Shown in pieces: positions 48,757 to 62,152 of a DNA stretch of 64,000 nucleotides; position 1 is the first letter of the stretch, and each line of letters starts with the position of its first letter. Under the pieces are notes generated by a model that did no database searches, was not told where the DNA came from, and saw only the letters and a list, made by a program, of their open reading frames with translations. The DNA lies in the IMG/VR virus record IMGVR_UViG_3300021962_000028, positions 32,001-96,000 of that record. One strand, 5' to 3'. This DNA is from a virus. The position numbers and the translations under genes are program-made.

Positions 48757-48786
48757 AAAAAAAAATACGACATTATGTCGTATTTT
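48757..48786 (-). terminator. Intrinsic terminator
   Basis: AAAATACGACA-TTA-TGTCGTATTTT. Confidence 0.75.
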
Positions 48787-49867
48787 AAAGTTTTTCAAAT
48801 TTAGGTTTTAGATATTTCCATATCATATGGTCATATGGTTTTCTATCCCACATTGCAAAACATAGTGATTTAACCTTAGGGTGTACCTTATTAAGTTCTA
48901 AATGTTCCGCAAATTCTTTTTTAGTCGGCTCAACTTCTTTATCCCCATATTTACCATATCTAAAATAATCGTGCATCTTACCTGCGTATTCTGAGTAACG
49001 ATAATGGTTATAATTCAAAGTTGAAACATACTGTTTTACTTTTTTGTAAAATTCGTCAGGAACGTCTTTAAGATAGTCCTCCATTTTACCTCCAGAACTT
49101 AAAACTTCCCAAACACCAGTTGTAGATAGATTAGTCATTATTTTATGAAGACGAAGATATTCTTCACCTTTTATCTTCATTCTATCTCCATTAGAGAATC
49201 TAACGACAAACCCTTCTTTATTATCCGCAATGGCGTGTTTCAAGTAAGTGTAGTCAGAAATTCCATCGTATTTTCTAACAATATTAAATCCTAAGTTGTT
49301 CAGAAGGTTTTTAAACCTAACATCCTCATTATTACCTGAATGGATGTTAACCTCATCACCATCTTTAGTGTGTATCATCCCTAATAATACCAAATCTTCA
49401 AAATCGTAAGAACAAACTATTCTATTTTCAGGATAGATTATCTCAAACAAATAAGTATAGTCAGGGTTTAATCTGTTATAATCGTATTTCTGAAGTAACT
49501 TAGTACCTTTAACCGCTTGGTCAGAAGTAAAAGAACCACGAGTAGCAAGAACCCACTCACCTTTATAGTTGAACAGTATCCCTAAAGAACCATCCATTTT
49601 TTCATAAACATCAAACTCTTCAGTTGGGGTGTGTTGGTTTTCTTCTATGTTAAAAAACTTCTTAAATGGTCTTGCAACGACATTACCTTCATTATCAGTA
49701 ACCAAACCACGGCATTGTTTAGTAACGTCATCCCAAAATTTATATTGGTTGTTACCTTCACCGTATTGAACCTTTGGAGTGTAGTTCCATATAGTCAAAG
49801 GAAGGGTAGGATGCACTTGTTTTTGCACCAACTCTTTCTCATAATATTTGTTCAATTGTTCTAACAT
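48785..49867 (-). CDS. RNA ligase (T4 Rnl1/RnlA-like)
   Basis: CRGLV, RPFKKFFN, EKMDGSLG (motif I), TRGSF, FEII, EGFVV, KIKGEEY. Confidence 0.92.
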   Translation of the reverse strand: MLEQLNKYYEKELVQKQVHPTLPLTIWNYTPKVQYGEGNNQYKFWDDVTKQCRGLVTDNEGNVVARPFKKFFNIEENQHTPTEEFDVYEKMDGSLGILFNYKGEWVLATRGSFTSDQAVKGTKLLQKYDYNRLNPDYTYLFEIIYPENRIVCSYDFEDLVLLGMIHTKDGDEVNIHSGNNEDVRFKNLLNNLGFNIVRKYDGISDYTYLKHAIADNKEGFVVRFSNGDRMKIKGEEYLRLHKIMTNLSTTGVWEVLSSGGKMEDYLKDVPDEFYKKVKQYVSTLNYNHYRYSEYAGKMHDYFRYGKYGDKEVEPTKKEFAEHLELNKVHPKVKSLCFAMWDRKPYDHMIWKYLKPKFEKL

Positions 49868-52102: not shown

Positions 52103-52543
52103 TTATACTGTGTGTTCTATTTGTACTCTAATACAATCTTGAGGTAATCGATTGATATGTCGGTAGTTATTAATATACCCCATCATATTTGCACTGCCAA
52201 TAGCATTCGCAGAGTGGACTACAACGTTCACAACAGGTTTACCGTCCATCCATTGTTCCACTAACCATTTAGTACAATCCATACCTGTTTTTTCGGTGAT
52301 GTTATCGTAGTTCAATTCGTAGTTATGGTAAACATTTTTATGCCACTCCGCCATTGCAGTGTCACCTAAATCGTGGTCCAAAGAAATCAAACTAATATTT
52401 TCCAATCCAATCTCGGTCACTTTTTCTACAAATTCATCGTAAGAACGAACAACAACCCATTGGTCTTTTTCAACAGGAGTTCTTACATCATCCAAATATA
52501 TTCTTTGTTTCATACTATAATTTTTTTTACTAATTTTCTTCAT
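52103..52543 (-). CDS. Cyclic-phosphate-processing receiver-fold (cREC) domain protein
   Basis: IYLDDVR, SLDHDLG, TGMDC, VHSAN..G motifs. Confidence 0.8.
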   Translation of the reverse strand: MKKISKKNYSMKQRIYLDDVRTPVEKDQWVVVRSYDEFVEKVTEIGLENISLISLDHDLGDTAMAEWHKNVYHNYELNYDNITEKTGMDCTKWLVEQWMDGKPVVNVVVHSANAIGSANMMGYINNYRHINRLPQDCIRVQIEHTV

Positions 52544-52559
52544 TTGACAAATATATGGA

Positions 52560-53060
52560 TTAACTACCAACTTTCCAAGCGAAGTTTACAATCTTTCTTT
52601 TTTTAACTGCGTCTTCAGTATTACCAATAACAACACCATCTTTAATTGTAAACGCGTGTCTACTAACACACATAACATAAGTTCCTTTTGGGTATTTTTT
52701 AATAAAAGTACCTACGGTCATTTTACGATTAACTTTCTTACCTTTTACTGTAACAGTATACTCAAGAGTGTTGAAAGACGAATGTTCAATAGGTTTCCCC
52801 ATTTCTTTACAACATTTACGACCAATACGAACACGGTCTTTAGCGAATTTATTCATTCCAGGAATGAATCCAAAAGTACCTTGTCTTGGTTTACGTCCAA
52901 ATTTATCAGCAACAAATTTATGAGCCTTATCATATTCAATATCAAATGCCGATGCTATCGCACGAACAACACAGTCATTAGTTTCAGATTTTGCGATAGA
53001 AGAATTATCATAACCTTTAATCGCTTCGGATGTCTTACAGTATGGTAGTTGATTTTTCAT
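52560..53060 (-). CDS. Hypothetical phage protein (DCVVRA motif)
   Basis: NDCVVRAI...HAFTIKDG; possible Cys-His papain-like fold. Confidence 0.7.
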   Translation of the reverse strand: MKNQLPYCKTSEAIKGYDNSSIAKSETNDCVVRAIASAFDIEYDKAHKFVADKFGRKPRQGTFGFIPGMNKFAKDRVRIGRKCCKEMGKPIEHSSFNTLEYTVTVKGKKVNRKMTVGTFIKKYPKGTYVMCVSRHAFTIKDGVVIGNTEDAVKKRKIVNFAWKVGS

Positions 53061-53105
53061 AAGACAAAGATATGAAGAATATTTTAATTGGCAAAGAAAA
53101 ATATG

Positions 53106-53191
53106 CGGAAGATGAGGGGCTCGAACCCTCGCGACTTTAACATCCTACCTGTTTAGCAAACAGGCCCCTTCACCAACTTGGGTAATCTTCC
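53106..53191 (-). tRNA. tRNA-Ser(GCT)
   Basis: Cloverleaf; CCTGT-TTGCTAA-ACAGG; long variable arm. Confidence 0.92.
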
Positions 53192-53196
53192 AATAG

Positions 53197-53268
53197 TAGT
53201 CCCTGAGGGATTCGAACCCCCACTAAAACATCCGTAGTGTTTCGTGCTCTCCGTTACACCAAGAGACT
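53197..53268 (-). tRNA. tRNA-Arg(ACG)
   Basis: AAACA-CTACGGA-TGTTT; GGTTCGAATCC. Confidence 0.9.
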
Positions 53269-53274
53269 GTACAT

Positions 53275-53478
53275 CTAATTAAAGGTATATTTCATATCTT
53301 CATTAAAGATAAAAACATTACCTTCTTGAGTTATACCTAACTTACTCAAAACAATATTAAATTCTTCTTGAGTGAAAAATTTAGATTGTACCAACCTGTA
53401 ATACGAGTTTAATAAATCAACTATCTCAGGTTCTGAAATTTGATGGGTGTTTAATAATTCATTTAATTTGTCTGTCAT
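53275..53478 (-). CDS. Hypothetical protein (67 aa, MTDKLNELL...)
   Basis: AT-rich 3' part of ORF 53275..53628; start reassigned to 53478. Confidence 0.6.
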   Translation of the reverse strand: MTDKLNELLNTHQISEPEIVDLLNSYYRLVQSKFFTQEEFNIVLSKLGITQEGNVFIFNEDMKYTFN

Positions 53479-53504
53479 ATATTTTAGGATTTTAAGTGTC
53501 AGAA

Positions 53505-53913
53505 TAAAAAGGTCCTGAATCATCCCTCCGCCTTCTGAGGAGAACCTTTTAGTTTTTAGTATAGTTTGGCGTTCATAGTATCCCACACCGATATGACTAA
53601 GATTCGTTAGCCCATAGTAACCATCCACGGTGGGTCTGTACTCTCACCCATATTTCAGGGTTACCCTCAGAACATCTTCACCCTACCCCCAAAGTTACGT
53701 GGCGAGTCTCACTCGGAAGACAGAGTGTGTATTGTAAGATTGTTCAGTGTTCTTACAACTTGTGGATTGTATTACGACTAATTAAAGCCCCTCACCCCCT
53801 TAATCCATAATGGGGAATCCTTGTTTGTTTGTGTAGCCTCCCCCATAGCCTTGAAGCCTTCAAGTCAGGTTCACACTCCATAACGGTAGGATATTTCCGT
53901 TAATCGTGGGGTC
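53505..53913 (-). ncRNA. Unidentified structured RNA(s), ~410 nt
   Basis: GC-enriched non-coding region with many hand-identified helices between tRNA-Ser and the next ORF. Confidence 0.55.
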
Positions 53914-53918
53914 TTTTG

Positions 53919-54003
53919 CGGAGGAAGTAGGATTCGAACCTACGGTACCTTGCGGTACGCTAGTTTTCAAGACTAGTGCAATCGACCACTCTGCCATTCC
54001 TCC
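53919..54003 (-). tRNA. tRNA-Ser(TGA)
   Basis: CTAGT-CTTGAAA-ACTAG; long variable arm. Confidence 0.93.
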
Positions 54004-54005
54004 AA

Positions 54006-54099
54006 TTTAGGTCGTCACGAACCCATCTGTGACTTATTACTAGATACTTGTAGTTTACTTACTATAGTTTAATCCGTTACTACAAGGGAACCCAACCTA
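54006..54099 (-). ncRNA. Unidentified ~93-nt structured RNA
   Basis: Closing stem TAGGTTG/CGACCTA; internal stems CTTGTAGT/ACTACAAG and GTCAC/GTGAC. Confidence 0.55.
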
Positions 54100-54102
54100 T
54101 CG

Positions 54103-54176
54103 GGTGACTAACGGGAATCGAACCCGTGACAACTTGAACCACAATCAAGTGCTCTGCCTACTGAGCTATAGCCACC
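54103..54176 (-). tRNA. tRNA-His(GTG) with G-1
   Basis: CTTGA-TTGTGGT-TCAAG. Confidence 0.93.
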
Positions 54177-54182
54177 ATATTA

Positions 54183-54388
54183 ATCGTTCAATCATTTTTG
54201 ACTGTCCCCAATACCGAATTTCAGCGGCAACTCACTTTTGTGAGGGGTTAGAACTTGTGTGTTAACTTACTCCTGTTACTGGTACACTAACCAACCGACT
54301 TAGACTCAAGTAATCGGCTCAGGTCCCTATGGTTGTAACACCACTTCTCATCATTCGGGAGCAAACTAGTCGTGTACTACTCGACTCG
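54183..54388 (-). ncRNA. Unidentified ~200-nt structured RNA
   Basis: Non-coding and GC-enriched; helices AGTCG/CGACT, TTGCTCC/GGAGTAA, GCCGATT/AGTCGGT, CTCAC/GTGAG. Confidence 0.5.
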
Positions 54389-54390
54389 TG

Positions 54391-54492
54391 TAGTCAGGAC
54401 AGGATTCGAACCTATTCCGTCTTTGCCATAAAGAGTCATCCGTACTGTTACTCAACCTTGGGGAGGTGACACCAACCAATGGTCTCCTGACT
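54391..54492 (-). ncRNA. tRNA-like RNA A (canonical acceptor and T arm, expanded non-canonical anticodon/variable region)
   Basis: AGTCAGG/CCTGACT-A acceptor; ATAGG-TTCGAAT-CCTGT; ~102 nt. Confidence 0.7.
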
Positions 54493-54497
54493 ATTTG

Positions 54498-54631
54498 TAA
54501 TCAAGGTCGGACTCGAACCGAATACCGTTCAAGACGGATTAGACAACCTTACGACTCCATAGACCCCACAAGTGTCTGGGACTATTGGTCTTGGGGACTC
54601 GGGCACCGTCCCTCATTACGCCCACTTGATT
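54498..54631 (-). ncRNA. tRNA-like RNA B (~134 nt with large insertion)
   Basis: AATCAAG/CTTGATT-A acceptor; TCGG-TTCGAGT-CCGA T arm; ~80-nt structured middle. Confidence 0.7.
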
Positions 54632-54706
54632 ATTTACCCCACTTCACCAGGTTAACGGACTGGCTGCCATATGGGAGTGGGGGTTTCCCGTTAATTCGGG
54701 ACTCCG

Positions 54707-54779
54707 TGGAACGGGGCGGAATCGAACCGCCGACACCTTGCTCTTCAGGCAAGTGCTCTACCAACTGAGCTACCGTTCC
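54707..54779 (-). tRNA. tRNA-Phe(GAA)
   Basis: CTTGC-CTGAAGA-GCAAG. Confidence 0.93.
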
Positions 54780-54784
54780 AAGTA

Positions 54785-54921
54785 TGATAATGATGGAGTA
54801 CCCGTCTCGCTCCAATCTTAACTGCTTTCCTGAGTTTTAGGAGGCCTCGGCAGAAAGGGTGATGAACTATTTTTCCATTCGGAATTGTCGACATTCCATT
54901 GAATGGTAAGAACCATTATCA
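54785..54921 (-). ncRNA. Unidentified ~137-nt structured RNA
   Basis: Closing stem TGATAATG/CATTATCA enclosing three hairpins. Confidence 0.55.
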
Positions 54922-54933
54922 ATATTTTAAAAA

Positions 54934-55159
54934 TTGGTGAGACCTTAAGATTTACTCATTCGTGGGTCACCCCATCCGTTCTACCTAGACCTCGCCTTTA
55001 ACATCCGTTCTACCCAAACCATCGTTTTTACCTGTTAACCTTTCGGAAAACTTTGAGTACCTCCTCAATGAGTTAATCTGATAGGGGCTCCATCTTGCTC
55101 GTCATTTCTGACTCCCTATGGGGTTCTGCTGATATAGGTCTATCTGCTATCTTACCAAT
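54934..55159 (-). ncRNA. Unidentified ~226-nt structured RNA
   Basis: Closing stem ATTGGTAAGA/TCTCACCAAT; long helix AGATTAACTCATT/AATGAGTAAATCT; repeated GGTAGAACGGATG. Confidence 0.6.
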
Positions 55160-55166
55160 CTAATTA

Positions 55167-55269
55167 TTCAAAGAACTCTTTTGACAGGGGAGTAGGTCAC
55201 CAACTTACCAACTACCTACCCCCCTTCAACCACATTACAAATGTACGGCAAATTATTTAATTCTCCAAA
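55167..55269 (-). promoter_or_regulatory. Internal promoter, leader hairpin and boxA-like motif
   Basis: TTTG-N20-TACATTTG (55269-55238), GGGGGGTAGGT/ACCTACTCCCC hairpin, GTTCTTTGAA (55176-55167). Confidence 0.6.
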
Positions 55270-55278
55270 CATTTTTTG

Positions 55279-55350
55279 TAGTTCCTGTAGGATTCGAACC
55301 TACGACAACTTGTATGTAAAACAAGGGCTCTTCCACTGAGCTAAGGAACT
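55279..55350 (-). tRNA. tRNA-Val(TAC)
   Basis: CTTGT-TTTACAT-ACAAG. Confidence 0.92.
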
Positions 55351-55356
55351 GTTAAG

Positions 55357-55428
55357 TACCGATGGGAAGAATTGAACTTCCGACACCTTCCGTATGAAAG
55401 AAGTGCTCTACCACTGAGCTACATCGGT
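55357..55428 (-). tRNA. tRNA-Met(CAT), probably elongator
   Basis: CTTCT-TTCATAC-GGAAG; paired 1:72. Confidence 0.85.
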
Positions 55429-55482
55429 ATTTTGGTGGACGTAGACTCATCACCTACTCTTGGGTTTCCACCGAACCCCTTG

Positions 55483-55553
55483 TTGTCCCTGAAGGATTCG
55501 AACCTCCACCGCGTGGACCAAAACCACGTGTCCTGCCATTAGACCAAAGGACA
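55483..55553 (-). tRNA. tRNA-Gln(TTG)
   Basis: CGTGG-TTTTGGT-CCACG. Confidence 0.93.
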
Positions 55554-55609
55554 GTTTGACTGTTTTTCCGATATTTATAGACTGGCATAAACCTTTAATC
55601 AAATTTATA

Positions 55610-55774
55610 ATGACTAAAGAACAAATCCAAGGTATCGTTAGACACGCACTTACTTTTGTGGGTGGTATCCTGATTATGAAAGGTCTTGCAACTGATTCAA
55701 CAGTTCAAGAACTTATCGGAGCTGCAGTTACATTAGTTGGTGGTGTATGGTCAATTATTGCTAAACAGAAATAA
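55610..55774 (+). CDS. Small two-TM holin-like protein
   Basis: MTKEQIQGIVRHALTFVGG...GGVWSIIAK; TATTTATA at 55572; terminator downstream. Confidence 0.7.
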   Translation: MTKEQIQGIVRHALTFVGGILIMKGLATDSTVQELIGAAVTLVGGVWSIIAKQK

Positions 55775-55793
55775 TTGATAACGACCTAATCGA

Positions 55794-55821
55794 AAAAGAG
55801 GGGATTTATATCCCCTTTTTT
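55794..55821 (+). terminator. Intrinsic terminator (possibly bidirectional)
   Basis: AGGGGAT-TTAT-ATCCCCTTTTTT. Confidence 0.8.
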
Positions 55822-55827
55822 ATTTTG

Positions 55828-55908
55828 TGGGAGTGGAGGGATTCGAACCCCCAATGTCGTAAGACCACTGATTTACAGTCAGCTAAGCAACCGTTGCTCA
55901 ACACTCCC
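55828..55908 (-). tRNA. tRNA-Tyr(GTA)
   Basis: GCTGA-CTGTAAA-TCAGT; variable arm. Confidence 0.92.
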
Positions 55909-55911
55909 AAT

Positions 55912-56040
55912 TTAGGAAAACAGAAGATGGTTCAGTGGACATCTGTTTTTACGATTAGCGTTACTCGGGTGAATACCTGCAAACTCCGATTATATTAGTC
56001 AGTATTCACTCTCGAACTATCAATACAATCATTCCCTAAT
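55912..56040 (-). ncRNA. Unidentified ~128-nt structured RNA
   Basis: TTAGGGAA/TTTCCTAA closing stem; GTGAATAC/GTATTCAC; AAACAG/CTGTTT. Confidence 0.5.
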
Positions 56041-56056
56041 CAACCTAATTTTTTTG

Positions 56057-56128
56057 CGGCCAGGGAGAATTACGATATCTCGACCTATCGCTTAACAGGC
56101 GATTGCTCTTCCTCTGAGCTACCTGGCC
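56057..56128 (-). tRNA. tRNA-Asn(GTT), atypical T loop
   Basis: ATCGC-CTGTTAA-GCGAT; T loop ATCGTAA. Confidence 0.85.
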
Positions 56129-56133
56129 ATTTG

Positions 56134-56206
56134 CACGCCTACCAAGATTCGAACTTGGAACAACAGTTTTGGAGACTGTGATGATAAACCGTTTCACCAT
56201 AGACGT
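56134..56206 (-). tRNA. tRNA-Trp(CCA)
   Basis: ACAGT-CTCCAAA-ACTGT. Confidence 0.9.
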
Positions 56207-56211
56207 ATTTG

Positions 56212-56283
56212 AGGTCGGTACAGGAATCGAACCTGTGTAGATAGTTTTGCAGACTATCGCCTAAACCACTCGGCCAACCGACC
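56212..56283 (-). tRNA. tRNA-Cys(GCA)
   Basis: ATAGT-CTGCAAA-ACTAT; U73. Confidence 0.92.
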
Positions 56284-56289
56284 CTATTG

Positions 56290-56364
56290 TGTCCCCGACA
56301 GGACTCGAACCTGTGACTCCCTCATTAAAAGTGAGGTGCTCTAAACCAACTGAGCTACGAAGAC
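56290..56364 (-). tRNA. tRNA-Lys(TTT)
   Basis: CCTCA-CTTTTAA-TGAGG. Confidence 0.93.
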
Positions 56365-56370
56365 ATTAAG

Positions 56371-56444
56371 TTGTCACAGATGGGCTCGAACCATCGACCT
56401 TTCGCGTATCAGGCGAACGCTCTAACCAACTGAGCTATGTGACA
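56371..56444 (-). tRNA. tRNA-Ile(GAT)
   Basis: TTCGC-CTGATAC-GCGAA. Confidence 0.92.
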
Positions 56445-56450
56445 ATGTTG

Positions 56451-56522
56451 TCGGGGTGGCGGGAGTCGAACCCGCCGCCTCGTGTTCCCAAAACACGCGT
56501 CTCTCCTCGAGACTACACCCCG
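56451..56522 (-). tRNA. tRNA-Pro(TGG)
   Basis: CGTGT-TTTGGGA-ACACG; C1:G72, A73. Confidence 0.92.
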
Positions 56523-56562
56523 TTTACTTTTCTTACCAATATGTCAAAGAACACTTTATTAC

Positions 56563-56595
56563 AAAAAAAAATCCTGAACTTTTTGAGTTCAGGAC
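56563..56595 (-). terminator. Attenuator terminator 2
   Basis: TCCTGAACT-CAAAA-AGTTCAGGA-T9 between leader 2 and tRNA-Pro. Confidence 0.9.
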
Positions 56596-56631
56596 TTTGA
56601 TATATTTGTTGTATGTTTTTCTAAAATTACA

Positions 56632-56742
56632 TTACACTAAATCATCATTAACTGAACTTGTATGCGAAATACGCGGATACGAACAATTACTAAATTGTTG
56701 TTTCCAAATCACGACGTTCATATGTTTATTAGTGTTTTTCAT
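56632..56742 (-). CDS. Leader peptide 2, MKNTNKHMNVVIWKQQFSNCSYPRISHTSSVNDDLV (not in ORF track)
   Basis: Manual translation; lies between a consensus promoter and the terminator; codons match the downstream tRNA set. Confidence 0.8.
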   Translation of the reverse strand: MKNTNKHMNVVIWKQQFSNCSYPRISHTSSVNDDLV

Positions 56743-56787
56743 TTTTTCTATTTGTTGTGGTATCTCTACCTGTTTCTATAATTACTA

Positions 56788-56818
56788 CAAAGTTACGAAA
56801 AATTACGTAATTGTCAAA
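56788..56818 (-). promoter_or_regulatory. Bacteroidota promoter for leader 2/tRNA block 2
   Basis: TTTG-N19-TAACTTTG. Confidence 0.8.
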
Positions 56819-56829
56819 TATTTTTTATT

Positions 56830-57414
56830 TTATTTTAAAAAAGATAATACTTTTTCTTTAATACCAGATTGTTTTAACCCTTCATTACCTCTTGGAGTCA
56901 ATACAAAATTTTCTAAACCCCAATCGTGAACCCATTTAATCGAATACGACATCCCTTCTTTACCCATATCAAGGTCGTCGATAGCTACCCACTCAGTAAC
57001 CTCAGGATGATTCTTTAAGTATTGGTTGATTTCCAATGTACGAGTCTGTTCTAAATCCCAATCTCTATTCCAAGGGAACGAACCATCGTAGTTATTACAT
57101 TCACTTAAGTTAGGTGTAAAGGCGATTGGTTTTTTATTAATTCCTTGGGACTCGTAATACTCTCCCATTTCCTCAACGGTACACCATCTTTTCCAATCTG
57201 ATGATACCACAATTTCCGCACCAGTTTTTTCCAAGATTTCGTTAAGAACTTTAATAGCTTTCTTATTGAAATTATCAAAACGGTATTCTAATGGCATTTC
57301 CTTTGGGGTCATTGATAACTTTTGACCGTCCCATTTATTTCGTTTCTTATAACGACCACCCCACTCTGTGGATAAACAGATTACTCCGTCGTGGTCTAAA
57401 AATATAACTTTCAT
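56830..57414 (-). CDS. HAD phosphatase of the Swiss-Army-Knife RNA-repair type
   Basis: MKVIFLDHDGV, IVVSSDWK, RTLEI, WVAIDDLD. Confidence 0.8.
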   Translation of the reverse strand: MKVIFLDHDGVICLSTEWGGRYKKRNKWDGQKLSMTPKEMPLEYRFDNFNKKAIKVLNEILEKTGAEIVVSSDWKRWCTVEEMGEYYESQGINKKPIAFTPNLSECNNYDGSFPWNRDWDLEQTRTLEINQYLKNHPEVTEWVAIDDLDMGKEGMSYSIKWVHDWGLENFVLTPRGNEGLKQSGIKEKVLSFLK

Positions 57415-57686
57415 TTTTTTTCTATTTTTTTTAAAACCATAGACGACCATTTTTGTCTTGGCCCGTTTTTCATTAACACCTCGTTGATAAAAGTCTCAGC
57501 ATCAGGAAGATTGTTGAATTTTAGAACGGTGTTGTAAGACCCACTCTCATAACATTCTTTATACTTTACGTACGACCACCATTTAAACCATAAAAATTTT
57601 TTAGATTCTTTTATACAGAAATGAACTTGGTTACTAATACCATTCTCATTAAAATAATCTTCTCTAATAATCAGGTAACTTTTCAT
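57411..57686 (-). CDS. Hypothetical protein
   Basis: 91-aa ORF; -7 box 4 nt before the ATG. Confidence 0.65.
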   Translation of the reverse strand: MKSYLIIREDYFNENGISNQVHFCIKESKKFLWFKWWSYVKYKECYESGSYNTVLKFNNLPDAETFINEVLMKNGPRQKWSSMVLKKIEKK

Positions 57687-57701
57687 AGTACAAATATACG
57701 A

Positions 57702-57869
57702 CTATTTTTTAATAATATAACCATATTGGTTTAAAATTAGAATAATCCCTAAAATGGATAAACCAAGACAAATTATTTTAACAATAACGTCAATGAATGT
57801 TTTCTTACTCCATATAACCCCAAAGATTAGGAATATAATTGTCGCAATAATATTGAATATAAGTTGCAT
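57702..57869 (-). CDS. Small membrane protein
   Basis: MQLIFNII...; two TM helices; start reassigned so it does not overlap the tRNA. Confidence 0.6.
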   Translation of the reverse strand: MQLIFNIIATIIFLIFGVIWSKKTFIDVIVKIICLGLSILGIILILNQYGYIIKK

Positions 57870-57890
57870 ATTTGTTTTTTTAGATATTTG

Positions 57891-57964
57891 TGGTCCATAC
57901 AGGACTTGAACCTGTGACCTTCTCATTATGAGTGAGCTGCTCTAACCAACTGAGCTAAAGGACC
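57891..57964 (-). tRNA. tRNA-Ile2(CAT, lysidine-type, reads ATA)
   Basis: CTCATAA loop; GGTCCTTTAGCTCAGTTGGTTAGAGCAG body and TTCAAGT T loop resemble ileX-type tRNAs. Confidence 0.75.
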
Positions 57965-57970
57965 TATTTG

Positions 57971-58043
57971 AGCCTCCTGTAGGATTCGAACCTACGACCC
58001 CTTCATTACAAGTGAAGTGCTCTACCAGCTGAGCTAAGGAGGC
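57971..58043 (-). tRNA. tRNA-Thr(TGT)
   Basis: CTTCA-CTTGTAA-TGAAG. Confidence 0.93.
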
Positions 58044-58328
58044 CTATTTAATTTTCTTATATACGTAAGTTATTGTGTCCCCTATTTTGTAGATATCGTC
58101 CCTATCTGTTGAGAATGCTTGTCCGCACTCTGTTTTGTAGTAATATTTTGGAGTTAATTCATTAATTGCCACAGGTTGTTTAACCCAAGAACTATCTATA
58201 ACGCATTTAACAACTTTGTCCCCTGGTTCAATTTTATTTCTATTTTCACACCCTGTTAATACAAAGGCAATAATACCAATTAATAAAAACCAAATAATGG
58301 CAAATACGTACGGTGCGAACTTTTTCAT
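58044..58328 (-). CDS. Putative lipoprotein
   Basis: Hydrophobic signal with LTGC lipobox; VIDSS motif. Confidence 0.7.
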   Translation of the reverse strand: MKKFAPYVFAIIWFLLIGIIAFVLTGCENRNKIEPGDKVVKCVIDSSWVKQPVAINELTPKYYYKTECGQAFSTDRDDIYKIGDTITYVYKKIK

Positions 58329-58347
58329 ATATTATTTTTTTTGTAAT

Positions 58348-58602
58348 TTAAACAACCAAATACTTTATAGAATTTTTTTTAATCCATTCTGAATCATATT
58401 TAAACTCCTTCCAATTGTCGAAGTCCTTAAGTTCTTCTAATACCTCATTAGGTACTAATGTAAACCCTTCAGGTGCAATACCATCAAATTTATGATATGC
58501 AGAATGTTCTATTTTTTCTTTCATCATTTGACAGAATAACTCACTTTTGATAAACTCATTATGTTCTTCTTCAAATACAATATCTTGATTAATATCAACC
58601 AT
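58348..58602 (-). CDS. Hypothetical protein
   Basis: 84-aa ORF. Confidence 0.65.
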   Translation of the reverse strand: MVDINQDIVFEEEHNEFIKSELFCQMMKEKIEHSAYHKFDGIAPEGFTLVPNEVLEELKDFDNWKEFKYDSEWIKKNSIKYLVV

Positions 58603-58617
58603 AATTTCTTAATTTAG

Positions 58618-58689
58618 TAGCCCCACCAAGAATCGAACTTGGAACTAATCTTTAGAAGAGATTCGTTATATCCATTTAACTATGGAGCC
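58618..58689 (-). tRNA. tRNA-Arg(TCT)
   Basis: AATCT-CTTCTAA-AGATT. Confidence 0.92.
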
Positions 58690-58694
58690 ATTTG

Positions 58695-58871
58695 TTAGAC
58701 TTTTTTAACTAAGTAAACGTGACCTGAGTCTGAGTTTTTAGAAAAAATATCTCTCATTTTAATTGCTTCTTCCTCGGTTTCAAATTCCCATATTTCAGAG
58801 TGACCATCTAATATGATAACAGGAACTTTAACTCCGTTAAGACTTTCCATTAATTTTACAATTACCCACAT
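58695..58871 (-). CDS. Small hypothetical protein (58 aa, MWVIVKLMESL...)
   Basis: Manual translation; TAAATTTG -7 box upstream. Confidence 0.6.
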   Translation of the reverse strand: MWVIVKLMESLNGVKVPVIILDGHSEIWEFETEEEAIKMRDIFSKNSDSGHVYLVKKV

Positions 58872-58914
58872 AATATTTTATTTACACTACAAATTTAGTA
58901 AAAATTATCCGAAT

Positions 58915-59076
58915 TTACAAATTAAAACAACTTTTAAGTGAAAATAATATAAAAAAAATTATTACTAACAGAATTGAGTAACCGAAAACTTTATTATTTC
59001 TTTCAACCTTTTCTTTTGAACGACCTTGCCATTCATCAGAATCCCATACTTCAGAATCCCATTCTTCATTTTCCAT
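58915..59076 (-). CDS. Small membrane protein (53 aa, MENEEWDSEVWDSDEWQGR...)
   Basis: Manual translation; C-terminal TM helix. Confidence 0.55.
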   Translation of the reverse strand: MENEEWDSEVWDSDEWQGRSKEKVERNNKVFGYSILLVIIFFILFSLKSCFNL

Positions 59077-59106
59077 ACTTAATAAGTATTACTAAATTTA
59101 TTTGTG

Positions 59107-59178
59107 CGGTCTATGAGGGAATCGAACCCTCCTCACTACCGTGACAGGGTAGCATCCTAGCCGATGAACGAATAGACC
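59107..59178 (-). tRNA. tRNA-Asp(GTC)
   Basis: CTACC-CTGTCAC-GGTAG. Confidence 0.92.
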
Positions 59179-59186
59179 AATTTTTG

Positions 59187-59259
59187 CGGTCCCGACGGGA
59201 TTCGAACCCGTACCTCGCACCGTGACAGGGTGGAATTGTAACCATTCAACCACGGGACC
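59187..59259 (-). tRNA. tRNA-Asp(GTC), second divergent copy
   Basis: CCACC-CTGTCAC-GGTGC. Confidence 0.9.
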
Positions 59260-59265
59260 TTTTTG

Positions 59266-59338
59266 AGCGGAAGACGGGACTCGAACCCGCAACCCCCGAC
59301 TTGGAAGGACGGTGCTCTACCAATTGAGCTACTTCCGC
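59266..59338 (-). tRNA. tRNA-Gly(TCC)
   Basis: CCGTC-CTTCCAA-GTCGG; U73. Confidence 0.93.
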
Positions 59339-59418
59339 ATTTTTGGGTAGAATCAGACGCGTTCTGTCTACCGAGACCTCGTCGTTAACTTTCGTCAGAG
59401 CGGACCGAGACACTTTTG

Positions 59419-59492
59419 TTGCGGGTGAGGGACTCGAACCCCCGTCTTTGGCTTATGAGACCAAGCTGGAACCACCTCCAGTCTAACCCACG
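59419..59492 (-). tRNA. tRNA-Met(CAT), initiator-like (C1:A72)
   Basis: TTGGT-CTCATAA-GCCAA; C1xA72 mismatch. Confidence 0.8.
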
Positions 59493-59503
59493 ATATATTA
59501 TTT

Positions 59504-59593
59504 GTTATCACTTCAGCCACATCGTGAAAGCCGCCCCTCACGCGTTGTTTAAAGGAATCCGATTGCGGCCTCATCCTACTGAGTTATGATAAC
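59504..59593 (-). ncRNA. Unidentified ~90-nt structured RNA
   Basis: GTTATCA/TGATAAC closing stem with two internal hairpins. Confidence 0.55.
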
Positions 59594-59597
59594 TTTG

Positions 59598-59669
59598 TTG
59601 CGGGAGGAGGATTCGAACCTCCGACCTCAAGGTTATGAGCCTTGCGAGCTACCACTGCTCTATCCCGCG
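59598..59669 (-). tRNA. tRNA-fMet(CAT)
   Basis: CGCGGGA...; C1xA72; CAAGG-CTCATAA-CCTTG. Confidence 0.9.
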
Positions 59670-59675
59670 ATGTTG

Positions 59676-59749
59676 TGGAGATGGTGAGAATCGAACTCAC
59701 CCCAGATTGATTGCAAATCATTCTCGTCGGCCTTGAGACATACACCCCC
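59676..59749 (-). tRNA. tRNA-Ala(TGC), atypical D arm
   Basis: G3:U70 acceptor GGGGGTG/CATCTCC-A; loop TTTGCAA. Confidence 0.8.
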
Positions 59750-59756
59750 ATTTTTA

Positions 59757-60020
59757 TTATGAATACTTTTTAGCGATATTCATAATAGTATCTTCATCTT
59801 CTTTACTCATTCTATGATAAGAATTTGCTAAAACATCACAATAATCCCTATGAGTTTCCTCAATTAGTGTATATTGATTTGGTTTACCAGGACCCTTACT
59901 ATTTTTAGTTAAGTGACCTCTTTCGATTAATTCATCAATTAATTCATTAATTTCACTTTTAGAGCATTCATCAATAAATTCATAAACCTCTAAATCAATG
60001 TAAGTGCTAAATTCAGGCAT
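59757..60020 (-). CDS. Hypothetical protein
   Basis: 87-aa ORF. Confidence 0.65.
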   Translation of the reverse strand: MPEFSTYIDLEVYEFIDECSKSEINELIDELIERGHLTKNSKGPGKPNQYTLIEETHRDYCDVLANSYHRMSKEDEDTIMNIAKKYS

Positions 60021-60040
60021 AATAGTTATTTTTAAGTTTG

Positions 60041-60112
60041 TAGTCCCTACGGGAATCGAACCCGTCTTTTATCCGTGAAAGGGATATGTCCTAACCGATA
60101 GACGAAGGGACC
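60041..60112 (-). tRNA. tRNA-Glu(TTC)
   Basis: TATCC-CTTTCAC-GGATA. Confidence 0.93.
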
Positions 60113-60170
60113 ATTTTTAAATCTTTTACAAAGATACAACCAATATTTCAAAGAACAAAATTTTACAAAT

Positions 60171-60200
60171 AAAAAAACCCATCTCTTTTGGAGATGGGTT
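60171..60200 (-). terminator. Attenuator terminator 1
   Basis: AACCCATCTC-CAAAA-GAGATGGG-T7. Confidence 0.9.
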
Positions 60201-60224
60201 CAGTGAATTCATAGTATAGGAATA

Positions 60225-60299
60225 TCACACCATCTCCATTGGAGTAGTCGCTTCAGTTCTATCTGTCCCGCCTATTAGTATGATATGTATTGTTTTCAT
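60225..60299 (-). CDS. Leader peptide 1, MKTIHIILIGGTDRTEATTPMEMV (not in ORF track)
   Basis: Manual translation; 3' end complementary to the terminator 5' arm; codons match the downstream tRNA set. Confidence 0.8.
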   Translation of the reverse strand: MKTIHIILIGGTDRTEATTPMEMV

Positions 60300-60322
60300 T
60301 TGCAGTTTTACTTGTTTTTTAT

Positions 60323-60353
60323 TAAATATACGTATGTAACGTAAAAAGTCAAA
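60323..60353 (-). promoter_or_regulatory. Promoter for leader 1/tRNA block 1
   Basis: TTTG-N19-TATATTTA (one mismatch to TAnnTTTG). Confidence 0.6.
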
Positions 60354-60361
60354 TTTTATTT

Positions 60362-62152
60362 TTAAAAATTAAATCCTCCCCCTCTTTTTGTGTTAATTCC
60401 ACTTGTTCTACCCGTCTTTTTACCAGATGGGACGGTATATGGTATTACAACATCTCTACTATTCTGTCTTTTTTGGTCAATTAAATCCTTGTCAATTTTT
60501 TTAACAACTTTTTTATCGGACAATAATGATAAAATATTCTTACGAATATCTTCTACCGTACTATTATCTGACTTTTCAATTGATTTAGATGTAGCTTCAT
60601 TATTAGTATTGACTAACTTACTATCGGTATCTACAAACGTATTTTTAGAATAAACTTGTTTTAACGTATCAATAGTACTGTGTTGGGGGGTATCAATTAC
60701 GGGTTTAGTGGCCGTATTATAATAATAATTGATTTTACCGATGTCAGTTTTAGGGTAAATTCTAATAAAGGTAGAAGTCTTTAATTCATCTAATGGTCCA
60801 AAATTTGTTTTTGAATTTGTTAACTCAATATAATGTTTTCGTAATTTAGAACCATAGTTAGTTTCAGGATTAGTCGTTAATCCATTTTCGTGAATTCTTC
60901 GATAAAATAATGTTTCCTCAATTCGTTTAAAGGTCACACCATTTTTTTGGGTTCTAACCATAAAATCCGAATCTGCCGCACATCTCCAACCCTCAAAACC
61001 ATTAAAATGGTGAAAAATATGTTTTCTAATTCCAAAAACCCCTTCACCAAATAAATTAGAATATGTTTTATATTTTGGGTCATCGTAATTAATTTCTTCT
61101 TTAAAGTCGTGATACATAGGTTTAACACATTCATAATCAGTAAGGGTATTAATTATCTTGAAAACCATATCATCCGACATAACATCGTCAGAATCAAAAA
61201 ATATTAAATTTTCTGTTTTAGAAATTTTTGACAATGTATTCTTAATAACATAAGGACCAACATTTTCTTCAAAGTAAAATAACTTAATTCTAAAATCGAA
61301 TATGTTTTCTCGCACAAACTTTAAAGTTTTTTCACATTTATCAATTCCAACTAAGATTTCAAAGTTTTGTAATTGATTACAAGAATTAACTACAGAATCT
61401 AAACATTCTTTTAAAAAGTCCACATTATTAAATGTTGGTATAATAACCGAAACTTCTTTATCCAAATAGGATTCGTTAGTAAGGGTTGTTTGAATAAAAT
61501 CGGAACGTAAATCTTTTTCATAGATAGACCCTTCAAAATTTTGTTGGGTAACGTATCCGCTATTATGTTTTGCACATATAATATCAATGTTATTTTCTTT
61601 AGCATATTTACCAATCCATACATCCGCCATATTTGGTCTATCAAAATATTCTATTGGAACTTTAAATAAATCAGTATGGAAACACATAACACCTGTCCCA
61701 CCAAATTGAACTTTAGTATCTTGAGATAAAAGTTGTTTAAAGTGGTATACTGAAGTATTACGTCCATAAAAACTATTAATAGGAAATGAGTTAAATGTTC
61801 GAGCGTGTAAAGTAATAATCGACTTCCTTTTATATTGATTAACCTTATCAATCATATATTCAGTGTAGTTTTCAGGGTAAATTAAGTCGTCATCTATGGT
61901 GAAAAAATACCCGTCGGAATTCATTAAATTATAAAATTTATAAGCATCCCCTCTATCATTATCCGAAATAAATAAATTTATTTTTTTATCATACAGTTCA
62001 GGTGGAATCTCGGTATAATCATTTAATGCTACATTTATAATGTCAGATTGATTATAAATCGATTCAATAGTTTTAATCAGAGTATCCCCTCTTTTATAAC
62101 TGGCGACATTATATATTACTTTATCCATACTTTTTTTAAAATTATATTGCAA
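60362..62152 (-). CDS. Two-domain GT-A/GT2 glycosyltransferase
   Basis: FTIDDDLIYP; VSVIIPTFN, FFDSDD, AADSDF. Confidence 0.85.
   Translation of the reverse strand: MQYNFKKSMDKVIYNVASYKRGDTLIKTIESIYNQSDIINVALNDYTEIPPELYDKKINLFISDNDRGDAYKFYNLMNSDGYFFTIDDDLIYPENYTEYMIDKVNQYKRKSIITLHARTFNSFPINSFYGRNTSVYHFKQLLSQDTKVQFGGTGVMCFHTDLFKVPIEYFDRPNMADVWIGKYAKENNIDIICAKHNSGYVTQQNFEGSIYEKDLRSDFIQTTLTNESYLDKEVSVIIPTFNNVDFLKECLDSVVNSCNQLQNFEILVGIDKCEKTLKFVRENIFDFRIKLFYFEENVGPYVIKNTLSKISKTENLIFFDSDDVMSDDMVFKIINTLTDYECVKPMYHDFKEEINYDDPKYKTYSNLFGEGVFGIRKHIFHHFNGFEGWRCAADSDFMVRTQKNGVTFKRIEETLFYRRIHENGLTTNPETNYGSKLRKHYIELTNSKTNFGPLDELKTSTFIRIYPKTDIGKINYYYNTATKPVIDTPQHSTIDTLKQVYSKNTFVDTDSKLVNTNNEATSKSIEKSDNSTVEDIRKNILSLLSDKKVVKKIDKDLIDQKRQNSRDVVIPYTVPSGKKTGRTSGINTKRGGGFNF

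Follow-up and report, generated by a model that had tools for sequence, protein, structure and literature searches.

The classical leader-peptide attenuators are those of E. coli and Salmonella: trpL, hisL, pheL and leuL, and the multivalent thrL and ilv leaders, which cover two to three amino acids. The phage locus described here, attenuator 2, is built like them in having a promoter, a short ORF and a terminator whose 5' arm can alternatively pair with a segment near the end of the ORF; as in the classical cases, ribosome position would decide the outcome and the regulatory codons name the limiting substrates. It departs from them in its target, which is a set of tRNAs and not of enzymes, and in its input: its codons cover 14 amino acids (15 tRNA species), most of them with a single codon, whereas the classical leaders use runs of codons for one to three. 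Further contrasts with the classical attenuators are that the sampled set changes in evolution along with the genes that the operon contains, that no 1:2 protector hairpin can be made out clearly, that the terminator is followed by a boxA-like element, and that no Rfam leader matches.

Attenuation of the decoding apparatus itself has a precedent in the aminoacyl-tRNA synthetase operon pheST of E. coli, with its pheM leader. The likeness to attenuator 2 lies in leader-peptide attenuation of a decoding-apparatus gene with feedback on charged tRNA; the differences are that pheST involves one amino acid, a protein-coding target and a bacterial rather than viral operon. T-box riboswitches also couple read-through to the state of a specific tRNA, but they bind uncharged tRNA directly, without translation, and each element serves one tRNA. 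The link to boxA antitermination of rrn operons (NusB/NusE) is a 17-mer that recurs unchanged in the 16S-23S spacer of Bacteroidota rRNA operons, although the phage copy lies ahead of tRNA arrays and just past a regulated terminator. Finally, the Bacteroid-trp motif (RF01692) is presumably a Trp-codon leader attenuator. Described as a candidate cis-regulatory leader in Bacteroidota (PMC2864571), it differs from attenuator 2 in concerning a single amino acid and a biosynthetic, bacterial operon, and has no match in the window, by which we mean the whole 64,000-nt stretch of viral DNA analysed.

A literature search found no report of leader-peptide or ribosome-mediated attenuation of tRNA genes. 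The reason that phages carry tRNA genes at all has been debated for fifty years. The main ideas are codon compensation and escape from tRNA-cutting defences (PMC10264068, PMC11464382).

Genomic context of the tRNA arrays

The window is part of a virus record of 158,622 bp with 32.5% G+C. The genome encodes a T4-type capsid protein, portal and terminase, and the promoters in the window are of the Bacteroidota type; the phage is a T4-like phage of Bacteroidota. The closest isolated relative, Flavobacterium phage immuto, shares 42% identity in the capsid protein; it carries three tRNAs and lacks a leader module.

On the minus strand, 25 tRNA genes are split into two blocks; two Leu tRNAs and a second Phe tRNA are located elsewhere in the genome. 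Block 2 starts with tRNA-Pro at 56522 and ends at 53105, and its 15 tRNAs, representing 14 amino acids, are Pro, Ile, Lys, Cys, Trp, Asn, Tyr, Gln, Met, Val, Phe, His, Ser(tga), Arg(acg) and Ser(gct). The identities of the four CAT tRNAs are our inferences: we take the one at 57890-57964 to be Ile2-like and those at 59597-59669 and 59418-59492 to be initiator-like, judged by comparison with relatives and with E. coli ileX, which by elimination presumably makes the one at 55356-55428 the elongator Met.

An Rnl1-type RNA ligase (48785-49867, minus strand) flanks the arrays, and a HAD domain of the Swiss-Army-Knife RNA-repair type (56830-57450, minus strand) is encoded between the two blocks. Their position beside the arrays fits a phage equipped against tRNA damage; phage tRNAs have been found to counter tRNA-cutting defences (PMC10264068, PMC11464382).

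Three inter-tRNA stretches are richer in G+C (53270-53900, 54180-54700 and 54800-55240, minus strand), and neither a plausible ORF nor an Rfam match was found in them. Similar stretches in three related loci (L043, L057, L072) end in sequences that resemble the T-arm and acceptor of a tRNA but are not called by ARAGORN. A 72-codon ORF also lies inside block 2 on the opposite strand (55556-55774, plus strand), between tRNA-Tyr and tRNA-Gln. It is accompanied by a two-way hairpin at 55794-55821, whose T-run on the minus strand is weak; on that strand the hairpin could be a partial stop for array transcripts.

Architecture of attenuator 2

Upstream of tRNA-Pro, the module is composed as follows:

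56788-56818, minus strand: promoter P1, a pattern match of the Bacteroidota type, TTTG-N19-TAACTTTG
56759-56770, minus strand: predicted 12-nt hairpin in the 5' UTR, GGTA-GAGA-TACC
56632-56742, minus strand: leader ORF, 36 codons and a TAA stop, with an ATG start and an A-rich stretch upstream
56662-56724, minus strand: putative sensing core, codons 7-27, with block 2 amino acids only
56652-56659, minus strand: putative antiterminator 5' strand AAGTTCAG, codons 28-31, pairing with 56592-56586
56598-56647, minus strand: predicted imperfect hairpin nested between the antiterminator strands, with the stop codon inside it
56563-56598, minus strand: intrinsic terminator, 13 pairs, loop CAAAA, nine T
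56536-56552, minus strand: boxA-like 17-mer beginning GTTCTTTGA, 14 nt before tRNA-Pro
53105-56522, minus strand: block 2, the putatively regulated 15 tRNA genes with intervening structured stretches

Structurally, an attenuator calls for a promoter with an ORF, codons that match the target, a terminator and an antiterminator that can be masked, and all four are present here.

An earlier reading of the DNA made without database searches (the sequence-only reading) had proposed a TTTG-N19 consensus promoter. It is present on the minus strand, with the -33 TTTG at 56818-56815, a spacer of 19 nt and the -7 element at 56795-56788. The pattern TTTG-N18-20-TAnnTTTG is enriched in the window (11 matches against 2.19 expected; 0/100 shuffles reach 11), and P1 is kept in 21/25 orthologues with enough upstream sequence. 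The internal promoter suggested at 55269-55238, ahead of the last five tRNAs of block 2, is also a real match to the pattern. The 12-nt hairpin in the 5' UTR recurs in nearly all orthologues with its variation confined to the loop, and might be a 5'-end stabiliser or a pause.

The leader samples every tRNA of its block

The 36-codon leader ORF that had been proposed at 56742-56632 opens with ATG and is intact in 25/25 orthologues. As claimed, residues 7-27 use only the 14 amino acids of the block 2 tRNAs, and every one of the 15 tRNA species finds a cognate codon there, both Ser isoacceptors being sampled (AGT and TCG). All 14 amino acids already occur within codons 7-24 (56724-56671). Trp, Cys, Tyr, Phe, Pro and Arg (CGT) appear once each in the core, and Thr, Asp and Leu, which were said to be kept out of it, are confined to positions 4, 28 and 33-35.

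Given the genome's own amino-acid frequencies, the probability that a 21-residue stretch holds only these 14 amino acids and all of them is about 3e-8; for an 18-residue stretch it is about 2e-8. In the six-frame translation of the 158.6 kb genome the core is unique among about 100,000 stop-free stretches, the next best reaching 12/14. One might object that the residue range was picked after the sequence had been seen and that the resemblance is a coincidence without function. We find this hardly credible: besides the low probability per stretch and the uniqueness in the genome, the same design recurs at attenuator 1 and in 28 distinct modules, backed by permutation tests, and the comparative data, including the intact ORF in all 25 orthologues, contradict it. 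The correspondence between leader and tRNAs is far beyond chance.

As a whole ORF the leader is less exceptional: among 622 small ATG ORFs it ties for the highest share of in-set residues, and six of the 622 hold all 14 amino acids. Whole-ORF content is thus not very rare, so that the argument leans on the compact core and on the comparative results given below. The six ORFs lend some support to a simpler view, that the leader is an ordinary small gene with its own terminator, that an unrecognised promoter in or near the boxA-like element drives the tRNAs, and that the composition reflects shared codon bias.

A cmscan search of 52500-60500 with E up to 0.1 gave no Rfam match in 56523-56830; the leader matched none of the His, Trp, Thr and Leu leaders, the Bacteroid-trp motif or the T-box. 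Beyond tRNAs, the search returned only sub-threshold chance matches elsewhere in that interval.

A second probable attenuator samples the complementary block

A module of the same kind precedes block 1:

About 60353-60147, minus strand: attenuator 1, with its ORF at about 60298-60224 and its terminator at 60201-60175

Its 24-codon ORF presents all seven block 1 amino acids within 14 residues; the set is Glu, Ala, Met, Gly, Asp, Arg-tct and Thr, with an additional ATA for the likely Ile2 tRNA. The two leaders choose different Arg codons, AGA in leader 1 for tRNA-Arg(tct) and CGT in leader 2 for tRNA-Arg(acg). At its end leader 1, too, repeats the 3' arm of the terminator that follows it. Attenuator 1 and the modules in related IMG/VR phages resemble attenuator 2 in the order of their parts, the CAAAA loop, the 17-mer box and an N-terminal leader signature. 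Attenuator 1 differs in covering the other, complementary set of tRNAs, in having an antiterminator that overlaps its stop codon, and in a predicted 1:2-like hairpin where attenuator 2 has none that is clear. Shared codon bias fails to account for two leaders that match different, complementary blocks.

Leader content tracks tRNA content in related phages

Megablast of the whole tRNA region gave matches to single tRNAs only, and blastn of the leader region against GenBank phages gave nothing useful. Relatives were found in IMG/VR, where the neighbouring HAD protein as query returned 80 loci and the nucleotide pattern of the core returned 25 leader-2 orthologues; a scan of all loci for a small ORF with terminator and tRNAs yielded 28 distinct modules.

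All 14 amino acids are kept by 25/25 leader-2 orthologues. A broken ORF in a relative that retains the tRNAs would have spoken against the sequence-only reading; none was seen, all 25 ORFs being intact. That reading also anticipated homologous leaders with conserved amino-acid content in shuffled order, and this is what L003/L211 present: the first half of the leader is rearranged and Trp stands at position 21 instead of 13, with the same content, which indicates selection on content rather than on the sequence of the peptide. Behind leader 2, the tRNA genes themselves are arranged very differently from one orthologue to another.

In the 21 distinct modules with at least 7 tRNAs, only 10/245 tRNA amino acids are absent from the leader. 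Leader and block content are associated with a Mantel-Haenszel odds ratio of about 14 (within-amino-acid permutation z = 8.7), and the mean Jaccard index is 0.69 versus 0.55 for permuted pairings, a value that 0/20,000 permutations reach. Codons without a matching block tRNA make up 91 of 326 leader-positive cells. The relation is asymmetric: the codon of a carried tRNA is almost never missing, while codons of absent tRNAs are often retained. At the level of codon boxes, the leader's choice follows the block's anticodons in the case of Arg (p = 0.014) and of Leu (p = 0.0045), with no tracking for Ser (p = 1). Neither the content tracking in 28 modules nor the Arg and Leu codon-box matches are explained by codon bias. 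The parts and their order, the match of leader to tRNAs, their co-evolution and the conserved alternative pairing described below are direct observations.

Several individual modules deserve description. L222 has the two blocks in reverse order, leader 2 and its block first, each behind its own leader; it carries a leader-1 variant with four Leu (L222:10678-10811), and the corresponding block includes Leu tRNAs, which relatives of the L222 clade keep in the leader-1 block. In L107 (L107:1258-1326; also in L159) a 22-codon leader with eight Leu (TTA and CTN) and four AGA codons, a classical-looking run, heads a Leu(taa)-Arg(tct)-Leu(tag) block, directly followed by a second leader for the next 13 tRNAs. 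Nearly all leaders, whatever their tRNA content, start with Met, Lys/Arg, Thr/Asn and have a His at position 5-8, and several end in Asp-Thr-Asp-Val/Leu-Gly; these shared ends suggest, as far as sequence comparison goes, common descent together with constraints beyond tRNA sampling at both ends.

A possibly analogous layout occurs in Caulobacter phage phiCbK (L344, 49540-50937), where gp083, of 45 codons and rich in Ser, Leu, Pro and Lys, and an annotated terminator lie ahead of genes for Pro, Pro, Lys, Lys, three Leu and two Ser tRNAs. Two further annotated terminators are placed directly ahead of other tRNA blocks of this phage. The analogy is suggestive only.

Alternative pairing between leader and terminator

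The terminator consists of the 5' arm TCCTGAACT (56594-56586), the 3' arm AGTTCAGGA (56580-56572) and nine T (56571-56563), and 99.3% of its cells are paired across orthologues. The stem begins 33 nt after the stop codon here; among the 37 modules analysed this gap nearly always measures about 20-36 nt.

The ORF was said to carry a copy of a terminator arm, and it does: AAGTTCAG (56659-56652) repeats the 3' arm, and its last seven bases are complementary to CTGAACT. The resulting antiterminator helix has 7 bp, formed by AGTTCAG (codons 29-31) with CTGAACT (56592-56586); the chance of finding AGTTCAG within the 110-nt stretch is P about 0.007. In an alignment of 17 distinct orthologues 119/119 cells of this helix pair. 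Three of its seven pairs have changed on both sides in two lineages, giving GATTCAG/CTGAATC in L206 and GGTTCGG/CCGAACC in L211, an outcome that 0/500 shuffles reach; these compensatory changes back the pairing that had been claimed. In L206 the ORF arm and the terminator 5' arm are changed with the terminator 3' arm unchanged, and the peptide is altered, so the antiterminator is preserved there at the expense of the terminator top.

Across the 28 modules the ORF segment that pairs with the terminator arm sits near the ORF end, and pairing with the module's own arm beats cross pairings (Wilcoxon p = 5e-7). The energy of the focal helix alone is unremarkable (-8.5 kcal/mol, ranking 12th of 28 against unrelated leaders).

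A further imperfect pairing had been proposed to run through the stop codon. The corresponding nested hairpin is predicted in all 17 distinct orthologues, but it is no more stable than shuffled sequence (mean z -0.76), so that this part of the proposal has weak support only. Folds of the attenuator 2 transcript contain no convincing anti-antiterminator (1:2) hairpin; a GAACG/GUUC pairing occurs in the full-transcript fold only, and the nascent transcript prefers the antiterminator.

Equilibrium folding of the full transcript with ribosome masks was rejected as a test of the switch: the terminator wins at every ribosome position (P about 0.9), and the calculation does not discriminate. Nascent folding was used instead, in which the transcript was folded before the terminator 3' arm is made, with the ribosome placed codon by codon. 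The predicted probability of the antiterminator is about 0.97 when the leader is free of ribosomes or when one sits at codons 1-24, and it falls to 0 for a ribosome at codons 26-35; a ribosome at the stop codon still permits it (P = 0.86). Family-wide, in-set residues make up 81% of the sensing part of the leader versus 67.5% of its tail (p = 1.6e-4).

From this geometry we infer that fast translation would lead to termination and a stall to read-through. The finished terminator is favoured regardless of the ribosome, and the switch must therefore be kinetic. In this model a kinetic switch must depend on coupling between ribosome and polymerase, which is assumed here for Bacteroidota phage infection. 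The leader presents single codons rather than runs as in classical attenuators, and each stall may accordingly be weak or short.

A boxA-like element and a variable second promoter follow the terminator

The 17-mer between the terminator and tRNA-Pro is found again after the attenuator 1 terminator (60140-60156, minus strand). In rRNA operons of Pedobacter, Flavihumibacter and Niabella, the spacer between 16S and 23S contains an identical 17-mer, which is found in many Bacteroidota genomes; in 4/4 loci checked (L226, L227, L229, L252) it lies between the spacer tRNAs and the 23S rRNA, 80-200 nt before the latter. This placing is that of a spacer boxA and marks the 17-mer as an rrn-type boxA-like element, which seems, on motif identity, to have been borrowed from the host's antitermination signal for stable RNA. 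That it would render polymerase past the gate resistant to later stops is an inference, without NusB/NusE binding data. Such resistance would be useful because block 2 holds a reverse-strand hairpin (55816-55799) and long structured stretches.

In most leader-2 orthologues (L198-L222) a consensus promoter P2, TTTG-N19-TACCTTTG, lies between terminator and box, about 10-60 nt past the T-run of the terminator. P2 is absent from the focal window and from L001/L209 and L003/L211, and no promoter-like site was found between terminator and tRNA-Pro in the focal genome. Judged by these pattern matches, the gate exists in tandem-promoter and single-promoter versions.

We also considered the box itself as a promoter and ruled this out, as it lies downstream of P2 in orthologues and inside the transcribed rRNA spacer. 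A promoter-like match does overlap the box of attenuator 1 (60159-60129), as would suit an ordinary small gene followed by a separate tRNA promoter, but the same two observations on the box tell against a promoter at that place. With codon bias also failing, as described above, we consider the small-gene view very improbable.

P2 bears on another possibility, namely that the leader is a translation-dependent sensor whose output is not tRNA transcription, the tRNAs being made mainly from other promoters. The terminated RNA or the peptide might then act in trans, or translation might control processing or stability of the precursor. With P2 past the terminator in most orthologues, read-through cannot be the sole source of tRNA transcripts in those phages, where the gate can only add to a basal supply; block 2 has its internal promoter as well, the N-terminal part of the leader (Met, Lys/Arg, Thr/Asn, His at 5-8) is conserved regardless of the tRNAs, and trans roles are known for RNAs and peptides derived from attenuators (PMC6614838, PMC7298713). 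Against this stand the window, L001/L209 and L003/L211, which have no P2, and the compensatory changes that keep the antiterminator helix, which is relevant only if read-through matters. Moreover, leaders travel with their blocks when block order reverses, and content is conserved without a conserved peptide order. On balance we judge a sensor with some other output to be unlikely, though it keeps more substance than the small-gene view.

Discussion

We conclude that attenuator 2 is probably a ribosome-mediated (leader-peptide) attenuator that gates a phage tRNA operon and reports tRNA availability, a conclusion reached without expression data. The attenuator proposed by the sequence-only reading has gained support from intact orthologues, from the content tracking in 28 modules and from compensatory changes in the antiterminator. 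What remains inferred is which way the switch works, that ribosome and polymerase are coupled, what the boxA-like element does and which physiological signal is read.

In the mechanism that we propose, host RNA polymerase would start at P1 and a ribosome would begin the 36-codon leader. If decoding is quick, the ribosome at codons 25-36 would cover AAGTTCAG while the terminator is made; with AAGTTCAG covered, the terminator hairpin would form and transcription would stop before tRNA-Pro. A ribosome held in codons 1-24, for want of one of the 15 sampled tRNA species that is scarce, uncharged or cut, would leave AGTTCAG free to pair with CTGAACT once that arm emerges. The terminator 5' arm would then be occupied and polymerase would read on, the boxA-like element probably conferring resistance to later stops along the 3.4 kb array. 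New phage tRNAs would restore fast decoding and shut the gate, a negative feedback.

As the signal, the overall availability of usable charged tRNA, which tRNA damage would also lower, is more likely than amino-acid starvation by itself. We lean, with somewhat less assurance than for the attenuator itself, towards a broader interpretation: that these modules form a widespread attenuator family acting as a multiplexed gauge of tRNA supply, with every leader serving as an evolving inventory of its own tRNA genes. If any of up to 19 tRNA types were lost, cut or poorly charged, for example through host anticodon nucleases, the replacement set would be turned on, and the new tRNAs would then turn it off again.

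The finding carries leader-peptide attenuation beyond biosynthetic enzymes to stable RNA genes, raises the number of sensed amino acids from between one and three to fourteen or more, and brings viruses of Bacteroidota within its range. The content of a leader can be read as an annotation of its transcription unit, and the modules offer compact parts for synthetic sensors of translation stress. With the sensor of the gate written in the codons of the gated tRNAs, the phage would measure decoding capacity directly and supply tRNAs on demand, and the question of why phages carry tRNA genes becomes testable by asking which stresses open the gate. If the gauge interpretation is true, control of tRNA genes by a leader peptide would be seen here for the first time, and the viral counter-defence against tRNA-targeting immunity would exist in a regulated form.
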